Shown one piece after another: positions 13,638-53,093 of a stretch of 64,000 nt of DNA. Position 1 is the first letter of the stretch, and each line of letters begins with the position of its first letter. Source of the stretch: a virus. The notes beneath the pieces are model-generated. The model was not told the origin of the DNA. It saw only the letters and a list, made by a program, of their open reading frames with translations, and ran no database searches. The position numbers and the translations under genes were made by a program. The stretch spans positions 1 through 64,000 of the IMG/VR virus record IMGVR_UViG_3300027566_000006; one strand, written 5' to 3'.

Positions 13638-14492
13638 TCACGAAATATTATGTTCTTCTATGTATTTATTTAGTTCCTGCTTTGTTGCTCCAGTTACCAA
13701 TATCTCAAGAAAATTTCTTTTATCATCTATAGACCATAATTCATGTTGTAAATAATAAGTGCCATCTTCTCTATAAACCCTACTTCTTTTAAATCTATAA
13801 GGAGGTTTTTCTTTTATATAATTTTTATACCCTTCTGTAGTCCACCATATAATTTTATCATATCTTTCTTTGGTGAAATTATCTATATACTTTGCTTCTA
13901 ATAATTCATCTAATGTCATTTCATGTTTAACACTATTACAATTCTTACAAGCAGGAACACAATTTCGTAAATCTAAATAACCATCATTATCTACATGCTC
14001 TTTATGAAATTGCTCATGATTTTCTTGATAATTATCTTCATAAGTCCTCCCACAATAAGCGCATTTCCATTCAAACACTTCACAGCAAGATATCCATTCA
14101 GCACTATTAATATCATGTCTTTTATGTCTTTTAGTTTTAGCGTATCCATTCATTTTGTCTTTATTATTTTTTCTATATAATTTACGATTTTCCTTTTGTT
14201 GAATTTGATTTCTTTTCATTGCCGCTTTACCTTTAGGATTTCTAATATATTTTCTTACATTTTCTATAAACCCATCCCAATGATTATTAATATAATTCAA
14301 TGATCTTTTACTTGTACACTTTTTGCATTCTGTTTGAAAACCTTTTTCTGGTTTACTTTTATTTTTCATGTAAAAATATTCTACGGTTTCAGGAAACCAT
14401 TCTTGACACATTGTACATCTACGTTCTTTTATTTCATTAACTTCTCTAATATTTTTAAAAAATTTAGGATTTGTTTTTGTATATTTACCCAA
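13638..14492 (-). CDS. HNH endonuclease
   Basis: CAYCG...HKEHVD...NCVPACKNCNSVK plus N-terminal zinc ribbon; same family as 10332..11099. Confidence 0.85.
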   Translation of the reverse strand: MGKYTKTNPKFFKNIREVNEIKERRCTMCQEWFPETVEYFYMKNKSKPEKGFQTECKKCTSKRSLNYINNHWDGFIENVRKYIRNPKGKAAMKRNQIQQKENRKLYRKNNKDKMNGYAKTKRHKRHDINSAEWISCCEVFEWKCAYCGRTYEDNYQENHEQFHKEHVDNDGYLDLRNCVPACKNCNSVKHEMTLDELLEAKYIDNFTKERYDKIIWWTTEGYKNYIKEKPPYRFKRSRVYREDGTYYLQHELWSIDDKRNFLEILVTGATKQELNKYIEEHNIS

Positions 14493-15507: not shown

Positions 15508-15903
15508 TTACAAATTACTTTGAATTAACCCTTTAAGAACGTCAATAGTATCAATAGTAATGTCTTTACAATCTTGATTCATAGTGTAACCATTAAACTT
15601 AATATCGTCTTTTTTAAGTTCAGATTGGAGTTGGTCTAACATCTTATATATGTCATTATCTGGCAATTTGCGTTTTTTGTCAAGAACAGAATTTCCATCA
15701 TCATCCTTTAATAACTCATCAAGTGTCATTTGATTATAATCGGCAATAATTTGTAATCTGGCAATATTAACAATATCTAATGTATCCTTTTTCTTCATAT
15801 CTAAAAGCCAATCACCGGGAAGCCCTATTGCTTCTCCCCATTCTTTATAATTCTTACATCCAGAACGTTCAAATAACATGTTGACTTTTTCACCGAAATT
15901 CAT
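15508..15903 (-). CDS. XRE-like HTH transcriptional regulator
   Basis: N-terminal FGEKV...IADYNQMTLDELL HTH pattern; downstream of the YopR-like gene, as yopS is in SPbeta. Confidence 0.6.
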   Translation of the reverse strand: MNFGEKVNMLFERSGCKNYKEWGEAIGLPGDWLLDMKKKDTLDIVNIARLQIIADYNQMTLDELLKDDDGNSVLDKKRKLPDNDIYKMLDQLQSELKKDDIKFNGYTMNQDCKDITIDTIDVLKGLIQSNL

Positions 15904-15931
15904 TTATTACACCTCACTTATTATTTATTGC

Positions 15932-16321
15932 TTACTGCCATTTGTTAGTTGTATATTTTTGCCCTATATCCTTTTGATTAAATACTAATAATCCTTTACC
16001 TTCCGTAGAAAAAACAAGTGAGTTTTTATCTAACCATCCATTATATTCTTCAACCTTACATAAATTCCATTGATTAGGATGATTGCATATACTCACTAGA
16101 TTTTCAATTCCTTTTTCAATTCCTGTTAAAAGCCTATAGTAAGTTTTCTCAAACAGTAATTTATTTAATACTTCAAAGCTTTCTTCTTTAATTAATTCGT
16201 CTAACAATTTTATTTGAGAATTAAGATAAGAAATATCTTTGAAATTATATCCCTTATCTATTAATCCATTCTTCATAAAATTTAATACTTTATATTTCAT
16301 CCACATTGTTTTTAAAATCAT
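15932..16321 (-). CDS. Hypothetical protein coupled to the repressor gene
   Basis: ATGA overlap with the 16318..17280 stop. Confidence 0.6.
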   Translation of the reverse strand: MILKTMWMKYKVLNFMKNGLIDKGYNFKDISYLNSQIKLLDELIKEESFEVLNKLLFEKTYYRLLTGIEKGIENLVSICNHPNQWNLCKVEEYNGWLDKNSLVFSTEGKGLLVFNQKDIGQKYTTNKWQ

Positions 16322-17280
16322 TTAAGCAACAACTCCTCGTATTGCACAAATTTTTCTTTTAGTTTAAAAGGATAACCATAATCAAATCTATCACAAATAT
16401 CAATATAATCATCTTTTGTGACTTCGCCTTTTTCTCTATATATATCCATAGCCATTTGAATCATTCCTGATTCATAAACTGTTGTTGCTGTAAGATATGG
16501 ATTATCAACCCATTTCTTAATCCTCGTCATACGAGAATTAAATAAAGCTGAATGAAATTTTTCAAATTTGTTTTTACCAGGAATTCTAAAAATAAGATTT
16601 TCAAAACGATTAATTTTACTTTTTCTAGGATCAGCTATTCTAGGATTATTAGTTATCTCTCCGTTATTCTCAACGTAGATTTCTTGCTCAAAGGTATCCT
16701 TAATTAATCCTACAGTTGAAGTTTCAACTTTTATAGTCCTTATATCATCATTGTTATTTTTCCTTAGTTTAATTATATTATTGTCAAAGTCAACATCATC
16801 TATAGAAAGGTTAATAATTTCTTCTAATGTTTCATCTCCGACTGTTCTGCCTCTAACCCCTAAGAAAAGCAATTCTAAAAGCAACTGGTCTTGTTCATTA
16901 TATAAGAGTTTTTGGTAATCTTTCAATTTCTCTTTAGATATAAACTTATTTAATAAAGCTTGCTTGCTAACATGCTTTTTAATATCAATAAACCTTGCTC
17001 TATTCTCTTTGTGCAAAACCAAATTCTTGTTTATGCAAAAATCAATATAAGTTACTAAAATAGATTTATTTTTGTCTCCACTACTTTTTGAAGTATTCCC
17101 AAATTTAGAGAATAACTCGTCTAATTCAGAAATCGTTAAGTTATAAACTGGTTTATTAACCAATTGTTCATACTCATCTATTGTACGCAGAATAAAAGAA
17201 TCTGATTCAGCAGTAGCCGTAGGTTTACTGCTCAAATATTCTTGCTTGATTTCATTGTCTACTTCATAAACCATATCCAT
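16318..17280 (-). CDS. YopR/MrpR-like repressor with a catalytically degenerate tyrosine-recombinase fold
   Basis: 320 aa; box I-like LELLFLGVRG..EEIINLSIDDVDF but no HxxR or LGH..Y; directly follows a DGQHR gene, as yopR follows yopQ in SPbeta. Confidence 0.7.
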   Translation of the reverse strand: MDMVYEVDNEIKQEYLSSKPTATAESDSFILRTIDEYEQLVNKPVYNLTISELDELFSKFGNTSKSSGDKNKSILVTYIDFCINKNLVLHKENRARFIDIKKHVSKQALLNKFISKEKLKDYQKLLYNEQDQLLLELLFLGVRGRTVGDETLEEIINLSIDDVDFDNNIIKLRKNNNDDIRTIKVETSTVGLIKDTFEQEIYVENNGEITNNPRIADPRKSKINRFENLIFRIPGKNKFEKFHSALFNSRMTRIKKWVDNPYLTATTVYESGMIQMAMDIYREKGEVTKDDYIDICDRFDYGYPFKLKEKFVQYEELLLK

Positions 17281-17281
17281 T

Positions 17282-18649
17282 TTAAATCCCCTCCGTTAGT
17301 AAGTTATACAATTTAGTTCTTAGAGTTTTATTAGCATCCTTATTGTTGTTTACCATCCCTAAATCTTTCCATAGTTTATTAGTATTCTTGAAGTTAATAG
17401 ATTTCATCTGTTTCTTTAATATTTCTTTCCAATCTTTATTGTTTTGTAATTTAGCAGATAGAGCAATATAGGCATAGAAAATATTTTTATTATTAATCAT
17501 ACTGGTTTCTCTGATTTTATAGGGATCAGCTATAAATTCTTCTGAATATAACCCCATCAAATAATCAGTAAACTCAACAATCCACTTTCCTATATTTCTA
17601 ATATTACTACTTATTTTTAATTGTTCTTCGTAGCATTCTTTAATGGCTTCAGCAACAATACTCTTTTTAGTTAATGCTTTATTGAGCCTAATATAACTAT
17701 CTTCTTCTTTCATTACTTTAGCAAGTTCAGATAGTTTATCATCCACTATAACATCTATAACTAAATTTTCCGATTTATTATAATCCTTTAATTGTATCCA
17801 TTCTTTCTTCATAGGTTTTTGTTTATCTTTTTGGGTCATATAATCATGAGCAGCCTTTTCGGATAAAAATGTTATTGTGACTTGCCAATTAAACTGTAAC
17901 TCAGGATTTTCCATTAAAGCTAGAGTATTTGCTGTTTTTCGATGAAAACCGTCTACTATGTTGATGATGCTACCTTCATTGATTGTTAAAGTTTCCTTAT
18001 TATCATTATATGAAACGCTAGATTCACCATTGTTTAAAATATTTAAAATAATTGGATCTGGATATTGTTCTCCTGCAAGCATACGATCTTTAATTTCTTT
18101 AATTTTTACTTTATCTATATTTATTTGTTCTCCAAATGCAGTTATTTTAGGATTTCTCTGAGTAGAAAAATTATAAAGGATAGCATTTTTCTCATCTATC
18201 TCTCCTAATAACTGGGCAGACATAGGAAGTTGCCATATTCTACTCTCTGATAAACCTACCCTTTGAGCCTTTTCAAGCACTAGAGGAAAAATATCTTCAT
18301 TATTTTGTTCTTCTTTGTAATCTTTCCATTGATTATATTCTAATTCAGTAAAATAGTCTTGAGGATTAATTCTAAATTCACTATTTACTTTCGCTAATAC
18401 TTTCCCAAGTATAAGCGTAAAAAGAAATAGGAAACGAACATCGGTTTCAGAATCAGTGAGAGTATTTAGAGGGATATTTTCAGATAATACCCAAGTAGCT
18501 CGTAAACTACCATTAGTACTCCTTAACCCTCTTGATATAAACTCTTTTCTAACTTCCTCTTTGATGTCTTTATCGTATCCTATTCCCTTTACGATTTCGC
18601 TTAACTTATTTTTTAATTGTAATTCTTGCTGTTTAATCATTATTGACAC
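17282..18649 (-). CDS. YopQ-like DGQHR/DndB-family (ParB-superfamily) protein
   Basis: QRN motif and IVDGFHR motif; 455 aa; synteny with the YopR-like gene. Confidence 0.7.
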   Translation of the reverse strand: MSIMIKQQELQLKNKLSEIVKGIGYDKDIKEEVRKEFISRGLRSTNGSLRATWVLSENIPLNTLTDSETDVRFLFLFTLILGKVLAKVNSEFRINPQDYFTELEYNQWKDYKEEQNNEDIFPLVLEKAQRVGLSESRIWQLPMSAQLLGEIDEKNAILYNFSTQRNPKITAFGEQINIDKVKIKEIKDRMLAGEQYPDPIILNILNNGESSVSYNDNKETLTINEGSIINIVDGFHRKTANTLALMENPELQFNWQVTITFLSEKAAHDYMTQKDKQKPMKKEWIQLKDYNKSENLVIDVIVDDKLSELAKVMKEEDSYIRLNKALTKKSIVAEAIKECYEEQLKISSNIRNIGKWIVEFTDYLMGLYSEEFIADPYKIRETSMINNKNIFYAYIALSAKLQNNKDWKEILKKQMKSINFKNTNKLWKDLGMVNNNKDANKTLRTKLYNLLTEGI

Positions 18650-18679
18650 ACCTCCGTATTCTTTATTATTATGTAATAC

Positions 18680-18709
18680 ATTCTAATATAAATATACACT
18701 GGTTGTCAA
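18680..18709 (-). promoter_or_regulatory. sigmaA-type promoter for the yopQ/yopR-like operon
   Basis: TTGACA-18-TAGAAT on the minus strand. Confidence 0.6.
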
Positions 18710-18750
18710 TATAATATACATTTAATTTTTATATTTTATTATTAATATGC

Positions 18751-19002
18751 CTATTCTGTATGAATTCTTGCCCCATTTGGAATATCATCTATGTTTATGT
18801 ATTCATGATGAAATTCTTGACCTAACATCTCTAAGTATTTTTTGACAGTATCTTCATTAGCATAATACTTAAAACTTCCTTTCCCATCTACGGGGATTCC
18901 TGAATAAAGCGTGTGATAATACCCTTGGCTTGTTTCTCGTATGTTTACAAAGTTTCCGGCTTGATTTTTAATAACCCAAACTTGTTTGTTTTGCATTGGC
19001 AT
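18751..19002 (-). CDS. Hypothetical protein, probably SOS-regulated
   Basis: 83-aa ORF with AAGGAGG RBS downstream of an SOS box. Confidence 0.6.
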   Translation of the reverse strand: MPMQNKQVWVIKNQAGNFVNIRETSQGYYHTLYSGIPVDGKGSFKYYANEDTVKKYLEMLGQEFHHEYINIDDIPNGARIHTE

Positions 19003-19049
19003 ATGTATAATTCCTCCTTAAATTTAATAATATGATTCAACTAAATTAT

Positions 19050-19063
19050 AGAACACTTGTTCG
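19050..19063. promoter_or_regulatory. LexA/DinR (Cheo) SOS box
   Basis: CGAACAAGTGTTCT on the minus strand (GAAC-N4-GTTC), about 10 bp downstream of an extended -10 TGcTATAAT at 19073-19081. Confidence 0.75.
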
Positions 19064-19224
19064 CTTTTATTTATTATAGCATCTTGGTAAATTAATACAA
19101 TGATAATTTTAAGTTTGAATTTGAAAAATAAATACTTTGTGAAATCCTTTACTTATTAACTATATTTTATATTTTATACCTTTATTTAAATATTACAATT
19201 CAAACCTATCTAAAATATTGGACT

Positions 19225-19962
19225 TTATTCGACTTTTTTAAAGATAGGTAGTGCAATAATACCACTTAATAACACTCCATACATTATAGAATTGCTCACC
19301 CAATTACTATTTATTGACAATTGTAAAATATATAATATGAAAATAATTACTAATGAAATGCCTTTAAACTTTACTTTCTCGTTATCAGTTAACAATCTAT
19401 TCTTATGTTCAACTGGTGCATATACCATAGCAATGACGAAAACTGTCAAAAAAATGGATAAATTTATTATATAATTGTATGGTATTAAAGCCGATAGTAA
19501 ACTGAATAGGGTTAAAGTAGCTAGAGATATCCATGCACATTTCGTATATGAGTTGAAGTGCAGACCCCCTACAAAGACTCTAAGCGACATAAATGCAAGG
19601 ACTACAACAAGCATTTGGGGTAATATTCCAAGAACAAGTCCGACAATTAAAAGGAGCGAACCCTTAATTAAAGCTCCCCATAAAATTTTAAAACCATAAT
19701 AATAAAAGTATTTATAATTGTGTTTTAGATATTTTCGACTTTGATAATCCTCGTTTAATAATTCTATTTTAGATTTTTGTTTTTTAGTTAAACCATCTAG
19801 AAATTTTATTATATTTTCTAATTTATTTATTAGTTTAGTATGTTTTTCTATTTCACCTATTAAACCTTCATGCATTTTTACCTGTAGCCATTTTGCTAAG
19901 ATATAAGAAAACCATTTAACGAATTTTAGAGTGTATAAATATTTTATATTTTTATTTTGCAT
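19225..19962 (-). CDS. agrB: Accessory gene regulator B (autoinducing-peptide processing peptidase)
   Basis: YGFKIL, LRVFVGGLH-x5-C (catalytic His/Cys) and YAPVEHKNRLL motifs; multiple TM helices. Confidence 0.9.
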   Translation of the reverse strand: MQNKNIKYLYTLKFVKWFSYILAKWLQVKMHEGLIGEIEKHTKLINKLENIIKFLDGLTKKQKSKIELLNEDYQSRKYLKHNYKYFYYYGFKILWGALIKGSLLLIVGLVLGILPQMLVVVLAFMSLRVFVGGLHFNSYTKCAWISLATLTLFSLLSALIPYNYIINLSIFLTVFVIAMVYAPVEHKNRLLTDNEKVKFKGISLVIIFILYILQLSINSNWVSNSIMYGVLLSGIIALPIFKKVE

Positions 19963-20266
19963 TTGTTACTATCCTTTTATATGTAAATCTTTTAGGTCTT
20001 CTTAAAACATTGTTATGTTTGTATATACTGTCGTATGTATCATACAGGCTTCGCTTTTGTGCTTGTAAATGATGTTTATTTTTTCGACTATTCCTATTCT
20101 TATGATATAAACAATATTTTTTATATATACAATCTGTTATTTCAATTTCCCATTGCTCAAGGGGTGTCTCCACTATAATTATATTTGCTAATGGAAACAC
20201 CTTAGAGCGAGTTTTGAATAACCTATCAAAATACTTAATTCTCTGTACCATTAATTCATCAATCAT
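19952..20266 (-). CDS. Basic hypothetical protein between the MazF fusion and agrB
   Basis: 104 aa, RBS present, overlaps the agrB start. Confidence 0.6.
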   Translation of the reverse strand: MIDELMVQRIKYFDRLFKTRSKVFPLANIIIVETPLEQWEIEITDCIYKKYCLYHKNRNSRKNKHHLQAQKRSLYDTYDSIYKHNNVLRRPKRFTYKRIVTNAK

Positions 20267-20291
20267 TATTACATCTCCTTAATTTAGAGTG

Positions 20292-21152
20292 CTACAAGGC
20301 GCACACATAACTATTTGTGCTTTCATATTCATAAACTACATTTTCAATATTTCTATTATATTTTTTACAATAGTTAGCCAATCTACCAACTATATTATCT
20401 GATATACTACTTAATCCTCTTGACTTCTTTGTTTGGGGATGACTATTCAATACTTTAATTTGCTCTATCAATTCAAATGCAATATCATCATTAAATAAAC
20501 AGTCAATCAAACCTAATTGCTTCTCGATTGCCGTATTCACTTCAAATATTTTTTCTTCTGACAAGTCTAAAACCTTAATTGGCACTCTATTATAAAACAA
20601 TCTTCTTTTAGTCACTGTTCTTATTTGTTCGAGACAAATAATGCTATCTTGGCGCATACCTTCATTTGTTGTTATTTTTACATGCGTAGGCATTGGTCTT
20701 TTTTGTTTTGTAGTTAAAGGGGCTATGGTTAACATACTACTATTTTCATTGCCCTTATTATTTGAAATAATAAGGCAAGGTCTAATACCCTCTTGTTCAG
20801 AATCTAAGTTATTGAAACCAAGATCAATATAATAAATACTTCCTCTACTGGGATAATAATTTGCCCAACTTTTATCTTCATTAGGATCACACTTTGAATA
20901 ACCACAAATTTGACATAAATGTAAGTATGTAACTCTCCCCTGACTTGCTCTTTCTATAACTCTTAAGACTTCCCTTTCGGGTAACACAGAGATTTTCTTG
21001 TCTAGTATGTTATTGATGTAATTTGCATCCACCATACGGCAATCCTGAGCAAACATTTTTACTGACCTGTGACCTTTTGCAAAGTTTACCATTATTGCTA
21101 ATTCTTCCTTAATTGCTTCTAGGGATTTTTTATCCACCTTTTCAGTTGCCAT
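20292..21152 (-). CDS. mazF: PemK/MazF-family endoribonuclease with N-terminal XRE-like HTH and C-terminal extension
   Basis: RGSIYYIDL..SEQEGIRPCLIISN..TIAPLTT..PTHV..DSIICLEQIRTV matches MazF; the first ~95 aa look like an XRE HTH. Confidence 0.85.
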   Translation of the reverse strand: MATEKVDKKSLEAIKEELAIMVNFAKGHRSVKMFAQDCRMVDANYINNILDKKISVLPEREVLRVIERASQGRVTYLHLCQICGYSKCDPNEDKSWANYYPSRGSIYYIDLGFNNLDSEQEGIRPCLIISNNKGNENSSMLTIAPLTTKQKRPMPTHVKITTNEGMRQDSIICLEQIRTVTKRRLFYNRVPIKVLDLSEEKIFEVNTAIEKQLGLIDCLFNDDIAFELIEQIKVLNSHPQTKKSRGLSSISDNIVGRLANYCKKYNRNIENVVYEYESTNSYVCAL

Positions 21153-21194
21153 TTAAAACCACTCCTTCAATATTTTATATTCTTAATATATGTG

Positions 21195-21223
21195 ATTATA
21201 CTATTTGTTAGAACATATTGCAA
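21195..21223 (-). promoter_or_regulatory. sigmaA-type promoter for the HTH-mazF/orf/agrB unit
   Basis: TTGCAA-17-TATAAT. Confidence 0.6.
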
Positions 21224-21236
21224 TAAATTTATTTTT

Positions 21237-21278
21237 ATATTCTGTATAAACCAAAACAAATTAATTTATACAGAATAT
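21237..21278. repeat. Perfect 14-bp inverted repeat between agrD and the mazF promoter
   Basis: ATATTCTGTATAAA-N14-TTTATACAGAATAT; no U-tract on the minus strand, so an operator or atypical terminator. Confidence 0.7.
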
Positions 21279-21296
21279 TGGAGTTATGTAGTCTAA

Positions 21297-21440
21297 TTAT
21301 TTAGACAACATAGAAGGGGTTTTGGGCTGATTAAGCCACATAAAAGATGCTGTACCAGCTCCAGTTCCAGCATACTTTGCTACAAATCCAACAACGGTAA
21401 TAATAGCTACGGTTAAAACAGGAAACATATACTTCTTCAT
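21297..21440 (-). CDS. agrD: AgrD cyclic-lactone autoinducer peptide precursor (47 aa); absent from the ORF track
   Basis: MKKYMFPVLTVAIITVVGFVAKYAGTGAGTASFMWLNQPKTPSMLSK: hydrophobic leader, S-FMWL ring candidate, QPxxP tail, GAAAGGAG RBS. Confidence 0.9.
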   Translation of the reverse strand: MKKYMFPVLTVAIITVVGFVAKYAGTGAGTASFMWLNQPKTPSMLSK

Positions 21441-21468
21441 AAAATTCTCTCCTTTCTTTTAATTTAAT

Positions 21469-22260
21469 TTATACATCAATATCATCGAGCATATGCTGAT
21501 AAGATTGTTGTAACCCAAACATCTTAGATAATAAATAATTAATAGGGATTATATAAAGAAATATTAAAATTGTTGGTATAGTGGTAAATAAAATACTTAT
21601 CATAATTCGTATTATTGTTGATAATTCATTAAAAATATTGGAACTAGACATCCATTTTACTGCACTTGCTAAAACAAATAAAACTAAGCTAACAAATATT
21701 ACTGTAACTATTGAAAGAACTTTATCTTTAAAAATATTAGACATATACTTCTTTTCAAATATCATTGATTTATAATATATAAAATAAACTAGGAATATTT
21801 GAAATATTTTTACGGGTAATGTCATTAAAAATTTTACCCATATATTAGCATTAATTAATTCTAAAGATTCATTTGATAAGCCTAACATTAATGGAACATA
21901 TACCATTTCCGTGAGAGTTATAGCTATCATCCCAAATACAATTGCAATAATAATTTTATACCATTTAATACTATCTTCAATATAGTTTGTTTTTTCTAAT
22001 ATATATTTTAATGAAATAAATAACATTATTAATGGAATGAAGAATTTTAATACAAAATTAGGAATAATATAAATAAATATATTTATGCTTATTGCAGTTA
22101 AAACAGTAGGCAACGCCAACCATTTAATATTTTCTTTCCATCTATAAGTGTCTACTAAATCATGTCTTTTTAATTGTATTAAACATAATAATACCCAAAC
22201 AAATTCCTCTGGAATTGATATTAACCAAAAATTCAACAAGGCATTAATAACATTCTGCAT
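21469..22260 (-). CDS. AgrC-like multi-TM sensor domain lacking the histidine kinase domain
   Basis: 263 aa, about 7 hydrophobic helices, ends shortly after the last TM; immediately upstream of agrD. Confidence 0.55.
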   Translation of the reverse strand: MQNVINALLNFWLISIPEEFVWVLLCLIQLKRHDLVDTYRWKENIKWLALPTVLTAISINIFIYIIPNFVLKFFIPLIMLFISLKYILEKTNYIEDSIKWYKIIIAIVFGMIAITLTEMVYVPLMLGLSNESLELINANIWVKFLMTLPVKIFQIFLVYFIYYKSMIFEKKYMSNIFKDKVLSIVTVIFVSLVLFVLASAVKWMSSSNIFNELSTIIRIMISILFTTIPTILIFLYIIPINYLLSKMFGLQQSYQHMLDDIDV

Positions 22261-22337
22261 TTACCACACTCTCCTTTTATGTATTATACAATTATTACTA
22301 AATAGAGTATAGCATATATATTATGTTTTGTCTATAT

Positions 22338-22901
22338 TTATTTTATATTTTTGTTAGAATTTTTAATCGCATAGTAAAGGATGATAAATACGTACATTCT
22401 TATCATCAGATCACCGACTGAAACTATTGTCCAACCGAAATCAAAAATGTCACACAAATAAATCATTTTACAATAAGCATTACCTAATACATGTATACCA
22501 TCTTGGATAAATTCAGGTTTAACGTACCCCGTCCAATAAGATAAATCGGGAAATACTGGCATACCACCATTAGCTTTAACTGCAATTTTATTTAAGGTTG
22601 CCCCTAACCATAAGCAAAATGTAGCTATTACCATAGGAGACTTAATTAAACTACCATTTTTATCTTCATTTAGATTGTATTTCAGTATCAACGGTATGTA
22701 ACTCAATAACGTTGCTGTCTTTATGTAATAGGCATAAGGAATAAACCAGTAAATATTATTCCATATTGTGATTTCCAGAAAAATATAGAAAATAGCAAAT
22801 AGGAGTGGCGGGTATATGTGCCACGACTTAAATATTAGACTTAGTTTATATTTGTTTTTTAATTTGGCATATAAAAATGCCCCAATAATAAATTCAATCA
22901 A
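22338..22901 (-). CDS. DUF5317-like membrane protein
   Basis: LN..AVKANGGMPV and CDIFD..SVGDL motifs. Confidence 0.7.
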   Translation of the reverse strand: MIEFIIGAFLYAKLKNKYKLSLIFKSWHIYPPLLFAIFYIFLEITIWNNIYWFIPYAYYIKTATLLSYIPLILKYNLNEDKNGSLIKSPMVIATFCLWLGATLNKIAVKANGGMPVFPDLSYWTGYVKPEFIQDGIHVLGNAYCKMIYLCDIFDFGWTIVSVGDLMIRMYVFIILYYAIKNSNKNIK

Positions 22902-52016: not shown

Positions 52017-52773
52017 GGTTTATTAGTCTCCTTTATTATTTATTTGTTTACATAGTTATTATTATTGTATCATGTATGGTATTGGTTTGCAAGTATATTT
52101 ATATTGTGGTTTTGTTAGAGTAAGACCAGACACAATGTTACTCATATTGTATTATTATTTTGTATATATGACGCATATATAGTTTAATGTGCTATACTAA
52201 TTAAATTATTATATGGTAATATGAGTATTATTTGTTTAGATGTGAGGCATATATGGTGTAATATAGGATTAAATAGGTTTAATATGATGTAATGTGATGT
52301 TTAATTGTGTGATATTGTGGTTATTATGTATCATATATGATGATTAATTAGTTTAATGTGTGTCATATTTAAGTTAATGTGATATACTATTTGTATGTCT
52401 TCCATAGTTGATTCCCTGTTATCATCCCCGAAAATTTGTCAAGTAATTTCCCTTGGCAGACTCCAACCGATAGCAATGAACAGTATCAAAACACATCAAG
52501 ACCAGCCAAACTGATCCTATTAGTATAGTTTGCTCTATTCGGCTTATTTCTATCCATATTTCATGCTATCGGCAGCAAATATCAGTACAAAATACCTCTT
52601 TCATAGCGTCCATAATCAAATATAGAGGTACAACACATATTCTGTAGTATTATTTCATGGTCTATAAATCCCATTATATCGGTATTCTTAGCACTTTAAG
52701 TAAGATTAACAGATTATCAATATAATTGACTAGGTATGCCCGCCCTACTTTACAAACTTTAGGGTAAAATTAT

Positions 52774-52787
52774 CGAACACATGTTCT
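52774..52787. promoter_or_regulatory. LexA/DinR SOS box
   Basis: CGAACACATGTTCT, matching GAAC-N4-GTTC. Confidence 0.65.
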
Positions 52788-53032
52788 ACATCTCTTCCCT
52801 ATCGACATCGCGGTTCATTCCGATTCCGAGTAACAACGGTAAATATAAAATTCTAATAAATTTAATTCAAAATACATTCACTATGTAATCGTAAAACATA
52901 CCAAAAATATTATAGTTTTAACCCTAAACACCACAGGGGTATATTAATAAATTTCAATAGATTTTTAATAATAACACCATACTAACTAACCCTCAATCCC
53001 TTATAAATCTACTTCTAACCTATTTACTTAAT

Positions 53033-53075
53033 AAAAAATAGTAGTTAATATACGAACCCATACATTAACTACTAT
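53033..53075 (-). terminator. Intrinsic terminator
   Basis: ATAGTAGTTAAT...ATTAACTACTAT plus U-tract after ORF 53094. Confidence 0.7.
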
Positions 53076-53093
53076 CGAATATACTATATATCT

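Follow-up and report, generated by a model that had tools for sequence, protein, structure and literature searches.

To our knowledge, arbitrium is the only phage-to-phage peptide system so far shown to set the choice between lysis and lysogeny, and it is confined to phages of the Bacillus group. In phi3T, the host MazF is inhibited by AimX and YosL as long as AimP is low; when AimP is high, MazF is active and promotes lysogeny (PMC10769878). SPbeta and phi3T also encode Sar, a small antirepressor under LexA control by which the repressor SroF/YopR is inactivated (10.1101/2025.11.27.690993). Genes of the agr type are also found on a phage genome: in the C. difficile phage phiCDHM1, agrB, agrD and agrC are presumed to be host-derived accessory genes (PMC3901668). 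Here, we analyse a locus in a 64,000-nucleotide stretch of viral DNA (the window), which forms the first 64 kb of the 98,339-bp IMG/VR virus record IMGVR_UViG_3300027566_000006 (CheckV completeness 56%). In this locus, an agr-type cassette composed of a DUF5317 membrane protein, a kinase-less AgrC-type sensor, the peptide precursor AgrD, a fusion of a helix-turn-helix (HTH) domain to the RNase MazF, and the AgrD-processing peptidase AgrB lies immediately upstream of the SPbeta-type repressor pair yopQ-yopR. Judged from the genes and their order, this anatomy fits a peptide-gated lysis-lysogeny switch, for which we regard the locus as a strong candidate.

Gene order and conservation upstream of yopQ-yopR

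The initial annotation of this DNA listed eleven open reading frames (ORFs) in the locus, and all eleven are found on the minus strand where it had placed them, most with support from hidden Markov models (HMMs) or BLAST (Table 1). Its naming of YopQ and YopR holds as well, the HMM matches given in the table being joined by BLASTP matches to phi3T_96 (yopQ; 5e-20) and phi3T_97 (yopR; 1e-22), and the two genes are adjacent, 1 nt apart. The order in phi3T is aimR, aimP, aimX, three small genes, yopP, yopQ and yopR; because aimR-aimP-aimX lie upstream of yopP-yopQ-yopR there, the agr/MazF genes can be said to occupy the arbitrium place, as had been claimed. From this position, and from it only, it may be supposed that the agr cassette replaced arbitrium.

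A failure of the linkage to recur in relatives had been named beforehand as grounds for giving up the proposal, and the linkage does recur. The order DUF5317, sensor, agrD, HTH-MazF, (an ORF), agrB, small ORF, yopQ, yopR, often followed by orf129 and an HTH gene, was recovered in eight IMG/VR loci (six of them distinct) and on one 170-kb contig of a metagenome-assembled genome (MAG; Bacillota bacterium), at 25-58% identity. Eight YopR homologues, once aligned, proved too divergent to serve as the seed of a collection scan, and YopQ was aligned in their place; this second survey yielded 19 loci, of which 18 had enough upstream DNA to be informative, and 13 of the 18 IMG/VR loci carry the agr cassette. 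agrB has moved to the front in three of these 13 (L091, L092 and L099), where the order is agrB, DUF5317, sensor, MazF fusion, second sensor, yopQ, and where AgrD was not found by BLAST. In four agr-less loci, yopQ-yopR are preceded by the small ORF, and this in turn by a stand-alone MazF; one locus has no MazF and retains the small ORF. Because the agr-less relatives keep MazF, the small ORF and yopQ-yopR together, it seems that MazF is the basic partner of the two repressor genes and that agr has often been added as a sensory input.

Mantel tests resolve two co-diverging blocks. DUF5317, the sensor, AgrD, MazF and AgrB co-diverge with rho 0.38-0.85, the upper value being that of DUF5317 and AgrB, and YopQ and YopR co-diverge with rho 0.86, whereas divergence is uncorrelated between the cassette block and the YopQ-YopR block, though the two are adjacent throughout. 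The blocks would seem to have been reshuffled against each other and yet to have stayed side by side.

Table 1. Features of the locus in order of transcription (window coordinates; L numbers are labels of compared loci).
Feature	Positions	Strand	Size or sequence	Evidence and remarks
DUF5317 polytopic membrane protein	22338..22901	-	187 aa	first cassette gene; PF17248, 4.9e-15
Kinase-less AgrC-type sensor, TM263	21469..22260	-	263 aa, 7 predicted transmembrane helices	hhalign; ESM Atlas
agrD	21297..21440	-	47-aa precursor	TIGR04223, 21.2 bits (cut-off 19)
Perfect inverted repeat (hairpin)	21239..21276	-	12 bp	just 3' of agrD
Promoter-like site	21195..21223	-	TTGCAA-17-TATAAT	before HTH-MazF; 10/12 consensus matches; consensus match alone
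XRE-HTH / MazF RNase / three-helix tail fusion	20292..21152	-	286 aa	PF02452, 4e-24, residues 103-212
orf104	19952..20266	-		basic small protein, isoelectric point (pI) 10; no family; homologue only in L014 and L015
agrB, AgrD-processing membrane peptidase	19225..19962	-		PF04647, 2.4e-34
LexA (SOS) box	19050..19063	-	CGAACAAGTGTTCT	directly after TATAAT, before the ribosome-binding site of orf83
orf83	18751..19002	-		small protein under the LexA box; no family; pI 6, not markedly acidic
Promoter-like site	18680..18709	-	TTGACA-18-TAGAAT	before yopQ-yopR; 11/12 consensus matches
YopQ/SroE-like, DndB-like protein	17282..18649	-	455 aa	phrog_5732, 3e-60; DndB PF14072, 1.4e-10
YopR/MrpR/SroF-like integrase-fold repressor	16318..17280	-	320 aa	MrpR_N_CB PF22822, 2.7e-11; phrog_5830, 2e-51
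orf129	15932..16321	-		overlaps the yopR stop; no family; after yopR in L016, L017 and L021 at 29-57% identity
Probable XRE-type HTH protein	15508..15903	-	131 aa	ESM Atlas lead; conserved in L016, L017 and L021

Peptide, sensor, RNase and SOS box

AgrB has the residues H135-x6-C142 invariant across eight homologues, a spacing that we take to be that of the catalytic pair of S. aureus AgrB. In the AgrD of the window, the predicted lactone ring S-F-M-W-L is followed by N-Q-P-K-T-P. A Ser, four variable residues and x-Q-P-[KE]-x-P are found in all eight AgrD homologues, and because this pattern is kept in every one of them, the ring that had been predicted is a reasonable choice. Around the invariant Ser, the ring is hypervariable (SFMWL, SFMGL, SAWTF, SWYLL, SAAWL, SWAFS, SMFFS and SWLFY). 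The sensor is the most diverged protein of the cassette, at 31-55% identity, and this is so even for pairs of loci with 76-78% identity in AgrB or MazF. A hypervariable ring and a hypervariable sensor would together mirror the AgrD/AgrC-sensor region of the specificity groups of bacterial agr. A MAG with a related phage contig (G006; contigs C148, C278 and C133; L026-L029, L049, L053 and L065) itself has three or more agrB loci, which come with AgrC-type kinases, and one of its AgrDs has a Cys in an aromatic-rich ring.

A hairpin follows agrD in every relative (L014-L022) with a stem sequence different in each, so that the structure is kept and the sequence is not; the tract after the hairpin is A-rich, not T-rich. 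We considered the inverted repeat as an operator for the HTH domain and rejected it, as its stem differs from relative to relative and does not recur above chance in the window; an RNA element or a terminator is more likely. Operator-like repeats shared across the module were also sought, and only AT-rich noise was returned.

The sensor has no match among curated families (Pfam and NCBIfam were searched) and none above background among PDB folds (best Foldseek E 0.38; best VIA Z 7.2, over partial helices). Its AlphaFold (AF2) model has seven long helices and a predicted local distance difference test (pLDDT) value of 78.8, and because Lys and Arg are confined to loops 1, 3 and 5, we assign an N-out/C-in topology. 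Transmembrane helices 1-2 and the basic, presumably cytoplasmic loop 1 are its best-conserved parts; the remainder varies. In an ESM Atlas structure search, AgrC-type kinases (HATPase_c_5 plus SPOB_a; 418-436 aa) rank first, with TM-scores of 0.60-0.68 over 212-232 residues. We then compared by hhalign the profile of the phage sensor family with 13 AgrC-type kinases of Clostridia-class genomes from which the last 200 residues had been cut, and the two align end to end over 236 columns (Prob 96%, P 1.9e-9), whereas the controls, reversed profiles and the polytopic AgrB and DUF5317 profiles, give Prob 2% or less. This end-to-end homology, with failing controls, supports the designation of the protein as an AgrC-like sensor made of transmembrane helices only, ending about where the dimerisation helix of the kinase would begin.

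A word-indexed search found 16 sensor relatives, all of 259-286 aa, and a profile search of 1.84 billion representatives found 214; none of the 150 relatives listed has a kinase domain, because all are 326 aa or shorter. Neither LytTR (PF04397) nor HATPase_c_5 occurs in this record or in any of five relatives, two of which, a 167-kb genome with terminal repeats and a 230-kb record, are rated complete. A second kinase-less sensor paralogue stands between agrB and yopQ in L018 (12611-13432) and L021 (12824-13687), and also in L089, L091, L092 and L099; no second agrD was detected beside it. Chromosomal relatives of the sensor in Clostridia-class genomes (L042:8710-9639, L044:8442-9422, L045:8030-8905, L046:8472-9431 and L047:8334-9290) have the same N-terminal S-I/V-P-E-E motif and no Pfam match, and their neighbours are housekeeping or sporulation genes (YabP/YabQ/MazG-like, SleB/YpeB-like and LCP). 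DUF5317, the first protein of the cassette, has a homologue in the same place in seven of eight relatives (38-58% identity); the DUF5317 genes of bacterial genomes do not adjoin the chromosomal sensor homologues.

In the AlphaFold model of the MazF fusion (pLDDT 82), residues 11-97 form an XRE-type HTH, residues 105-212 a MazF barrel and residues 222-285 a tail of three helices. The MazF core superposes on S. aureus MazF with Z 18 and a root-mean-square deviation of 1.9 A over 113 residues (41% identity), the HTH part matches XRE regulators (SinR, ImmR and the P22 c2 repressor) with Z 8-9.5, and the fusion matches B. subtilis EndoA in sequence searches (E 1e-17). Among homologues, the catalytic R124 is invariant and a Ser/Thr at 146-147 is kept. 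HMM searches found no MazE-type match among the module proteins, and orf104, the only adjacent small gene, is missing in most relatives; any antitoxin function would therefore lie in cis or come from another partner. Grouped at 90% identity, the fusion family comprises 40 or more clusters, every one of them of metagenomic or MAG origin; among them are NCBI MAG records labelled Clostridium sp. or Bacilli, in which HTH-MazF proteins with 58-60% identity are encoded on contigs of up to 149 kb. None of the GenBank phages has the full-length fusion. Of the phage-owned MazF effector that had been claimed for the locus, the phage-encoded HTH-MazF is thus present, as a putative effector. Most relatives have a second, stand-alone MazF (140-217 aa; PF02452, about 1e-24), either ~2.5 kb upstream of the cassette or just after yopR (L014:7216-7638, L015:7341-7790, L018:7021-7443, L021:7194-7625 and L022:15927-16580), and this record has the fused copy only.

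The closest characterised MazFs cut at UACAU. We chose this motif in advance and took expectations from synonymous-codon shuffles. Pooled over eight loci, yopQ and yopR contain 9 UACAU sites against 23.4 expected, whereas the cassette genes of the same loci contain 61 against 55.4 and are not depleted. UACAU is the most depleted of 556 testable pentamers in yopQ and yopR (P 6e-4) and ranks 489th of 625 in the cassette genes; first rank among 556 is notable for a motif chosen beforehand, the cut site of this MazF being presumed from its relatives. ACA, the site of E. coli MazF, is not depleted in any gene of the module. In yopQ and yopR of the eight loci, GGATC ranks second for depletion (1 against 9.0) and GATCA seventh (7 against 16.2), which suggests avoidance of a GATC-type restriction site.

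A predicted complex of the sensor with HTH-MazF scores 0.45 (0.42-0.47 over runs) against 0.01 for the best control; the runs share at least 75% of contacts, and the pLDDT of the partners is at least 75. The mark for this score is reached by 58 of 80 solved complexes and by 2 of 110 mismatched pairs; with a score of 0.60 or less, only 7 of the 80 solved complexes reach it, as do both mismatches. We read the prediction as a hint of contact rather than as evidence of binding.

The LexA box noted upstream of orf83 is genuine. CGAAC-N4-GTTC occurs twice in the window against 0.02 expected, and the copy at 19051-19063 (CGAACAAGTGTTC, with a T next to it at 19050) is placed between a TATAAT and the ribosome-binding site of orf83. 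In the window, and likewise in ten relatives, an exact GAAC-N4-GTTC separates the -10 box from the ribosome-binding site of the small ORF; none of those ten loci has another copy, and one further locus has a box with one mismatch. In nearly all relatives, agr-less ones included, a small ORF with V-x-V-I-K-D-x-x-G-N-F precedes yopQ. Resembling Sar in position and regulation (10.1101/2025.11.27.690993), orf83 is by analogy a candidate for an SOS-induced antirepressor. The second perfect CGAAC-N4-GTTC of the window, at 52774-52786 on the plus strand, falls in an interval without an ORF of at least 40 aa (52300-53093), just past the 3' end of a minus-strand gene that encodes 588 aa and near the strand switch; it may mark another SOS-controlled promoter or RNA.

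A proposed peptide-gated switch and its alternatives

We propose that the locus feeds a kinase-free, agr-type communication input into an SPbeta-type switch through a MazF that the phage itself owns, a reading to which we give an even chance. In this model, AgrB would turn AgrD into a secreted pentapeptide ring closed as a Ser-lactone (S-F-M-W-L), which would build up as more cells carry, or are infected by, the phage. The peptide would be sensed at the outer face of the seven-helix kinase-less sensor, perhaps together with DUF5317, and the sensor, with no phosphorelay at its disposal, would act directly on the XRE-HTH/MazF/tail fusion, holding or releasing it. Active MazF would cut UACAU-containing mRNAs, and the UACAU-poor yopQ-yopR message would escape, so that lysogeny would be favoured, in parallel to the active host MazF of phi3T at high arbitrium. 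The LexA-controlled orf83 would serve separately, as an SOS-induced antirepressor for induction. Taken in its full detail, with a lactone peptide, a kinase-less AgrC sensor that directly gates a DNA-binding MazF, and a repressor mRNA that evades the RNase, so that phages sharing a pherotype would gauge each other's numbers and opt for dormancy, this phosphorelay-free route is possible but doubtful.

Several points weigh against the peptide-gated reading. All of its support comes from sequences and structural models. Gene order is usually kept within a phage family, and the neighbourhood of these genes may by itself be a product of shared ancestry; the divergence of MazF does not follow that of YopR (rho -0.02), and therefore no specific pairing of MazF with the repressor is visible. 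In the yopQ, yopR and orf129 of the window, UACAU is observed 0 times against 2.3 expected, which is not significant alone, and the pooled depletion is ~2.6-fold, not a purge, and loses significance once corrected by Bonferroni for the 556 pentamers (0.35). The complex score of 0.45 lies in a range in which such predictions are more often wrong than right. The chromosomal relatives of the sensor (290-326 aa), found in 5 of 399 sampled genomes, have no agr genes nearby, so the sensor fold need not bind an autoinducing peptide. No conserved antitoxin for the MazF was found among the module proteins. Finally, canonical agrB-agrC loci are also present in the host MAG that carries the related phage contig, and cross-talk between host and phage peptides is possible.

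The alternative that survives best, although we think it unlikely, is a lysogenic-conversion or defence cassette: agrBD and the sensor would manipulate or eavesdrop on the host agr, and HTH-MazF would be a fused toxin-antitoxin, serving superinfection exclusion, abortive infection or addiction, with no part in the lysis-lysogeny choice. MazF-like genes are indeed common phage morons (101 GenBank phages; phrog_1936), but morons are usually sporadic, and this cassette keeps one place across relatives of only 25-60% identity. The presumed host origin of the phiCDHM1 genes (PMC3901668) speaks for it, as do the several agrB/AgrC-type loci and the aromatic-rich AgrD of the MAG; hypervariable, Ser-based AgrDs accompanied by a phage-encoded sensor would nevertheless fit a private channel better than mimicry of one host signal. 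The lack of co-divergence between MazF and YopR also favours a conversion or defence role, against which it counts that MazF stays before yopQ-yopR even where agr has been lost and that UACAU depletion is limited to the repressor genes.

It is improbable that the sensor instead pairs with a host AgrC-type kinase, as a heterodimer or a dominant-negative partner, so that the readout would pass through the host AgrA and HTH-MazF would be controlled only transcriptionally. AgrC-type kinases act as dimers, likely hosts carry 5-14 HATPase_c_5 kinases per genome, and the phage protein aligns with AgrC sensor regions up to the start of the dimerisation helix; yet the sensor, for all its extreme divergence between phages (31-55%), would need to match a host kinase, its stand-alone chromosomal relatives do not adjoin kinases, and the weak complex signal points to HTH-MazF, not to a missing partner. 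Least probable of the three is that the membrane protein and DUF5317 serve in the export or maturation of an AgrD peptide acting as a toxin or exclusion signal, or in immunity to it, with no phage-encoded sensing: ligand binding by the sensor is predicted from homology only, DUF5317 is without known function and no mention of it was found in the literature, and both genes are co-oriented with agrD upstream of the hairpin, but the membrane protein is homologous to a sensor domain rather than to transporters or CPBP proteases, it has neither an invariant His nor an EExxxR motif, and conserved helices 1-2 and loop 1 beside a variable remainder are what is expected of a receptor.

If the peptide-gated reading is true, the locus would represent a second phage communication system, chemically and mechanistically independent of arbitrium and with agr-like specificity groups, in which an AgrB-made lactone ring supplies a different chemistry and a membrane sensor without a kinase a different receptor logic. 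Phage communication would then extend to large phages of anaerobic Clostridia-type bacteria, the likely hosts, and the phage would own the kind of RNase that phi3T borrows from its host. The locus would also be a natural example of an AgrC sensor domain that signals without phosphotransfer. That the repressor message has few cut sites may account for the way in which MazF activity can favour lysogeny, an explanation open to test, and at least 40 natural peptide/sensor variants are at hand for studies of specificity.

The phage record and its place among known systems

The window has a GC content of 26-31%, and nearly all genes up to ~47 kb lie on its minus strand. A groundwater metagenome, possibly the source sample, is the only public DNA sequencing run that matches the DNA in full, and no RNA run is listed as matching it. 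With its phi3T counterpart, the terminase YonF shares 48% identity over 583 residues, and YonG, YonJ, YoqL, YorM, YoqD and a methylase also match phi3T, so that, by these protein matches, kinship with the SPbeta-group phages reaches past the lysogeny switch. The YoqL-like HNH endonuclease (13638-14492, minus strand), among the few other proteins common to the window and phi3T, is 35% identical to phi3T_115 and lies ~1 kb beyond the HTH gene that closes the locus. In a check bearing on the mode of integration, just one of five phage records yielded a large serine recombinase.

The initial annotation had called that last gene an HTH gene. The ten best Atlas matches of its 131-aa product all belong to the HTH_3/HTH_26 clan, with scores of 0.90-0.92, and its residues 1-70 align to HTH_3 models, a structure-search lead that speaks for the label; HMM searches gave no match in its support.

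Set beside the closest described systems, the locus shows the following likenesses and differences:

(i) MazEF/PemIK pairs, such as B. subtilis EndoA and S. aureus MazF, share with the fusion the MazF fold, the catalytic Arg and the Ser/Thr. No MazE gene accompanies MazF here, and an XRE HTH and a three-helix tail are instead fused to it in cis.

(ii) The phiCDHM1 agr3 locus likewise places agrB and agrD on a phage genome with no agrA. Unlike the present record, phiCDHM1 is a ~54-kb myovirus; its AgrC is complete with the kinase, and its agr genes are unconnected with any repressor module (PMC3901668). A tblastn search of 50,697 GenBank phage records with the AgrB of the window found nothing, and literature searches on phage agr genes returned only phiCDHM1 and reviews, with no paper describing the present arrangement.

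(iii) Bacterial agr (agrBDCA of Staphylococcus and Clostridia) resembles the cassette in the His/Cys pair of AgrB, the five-residue ring, the hypervariability of ring and sensor, and the homology of the sensor domain. The cassette differs in having neither a histidine-kinase domain nor a LytTR regulator, in having Ser for Cys in all eight phage precursors, and in the order sensor-agrD-(HTH-MazF)-agrB.

(iv) The LexA-Sar-SroF arrangement also joins a YopR/SroF-type integrase-fold repressor to a nearby small gene under a LexA box. Here, this gene precedes yopQ, whereas the Sar gene lies downstream of yopR, and no sequence similarity between orf83 and phi3T_99 (Sar) was detected. The repressor module further departs from the SPbeta type in having no yopP homologue: no ORF of this record matches phi3T_95, and orf83 stands in that place.

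(v) Arbitrium is likewise a secreted, phage-encoded peptide system immediately upstream of yopQ-yopR. BLAST with phi3T AimR found nothing credible in this record and four relatives, two of them complete (a single match of E 1e-3 contains six internal stops), and where arbitrium would have a linear AimP carrying a signal peptide, AgrD is the only small secreted peptide encoded. AimP is imported (Opp), whereas the signal here is predicted to be an AgrB-processed cyclic lactone that would be sensed outside the cell by a membrane protein. The MazF of phi3T is a host enzyme inhibited by AimX and YosL; that of the present locus is encoded by the phage and fused to an HTH domain.

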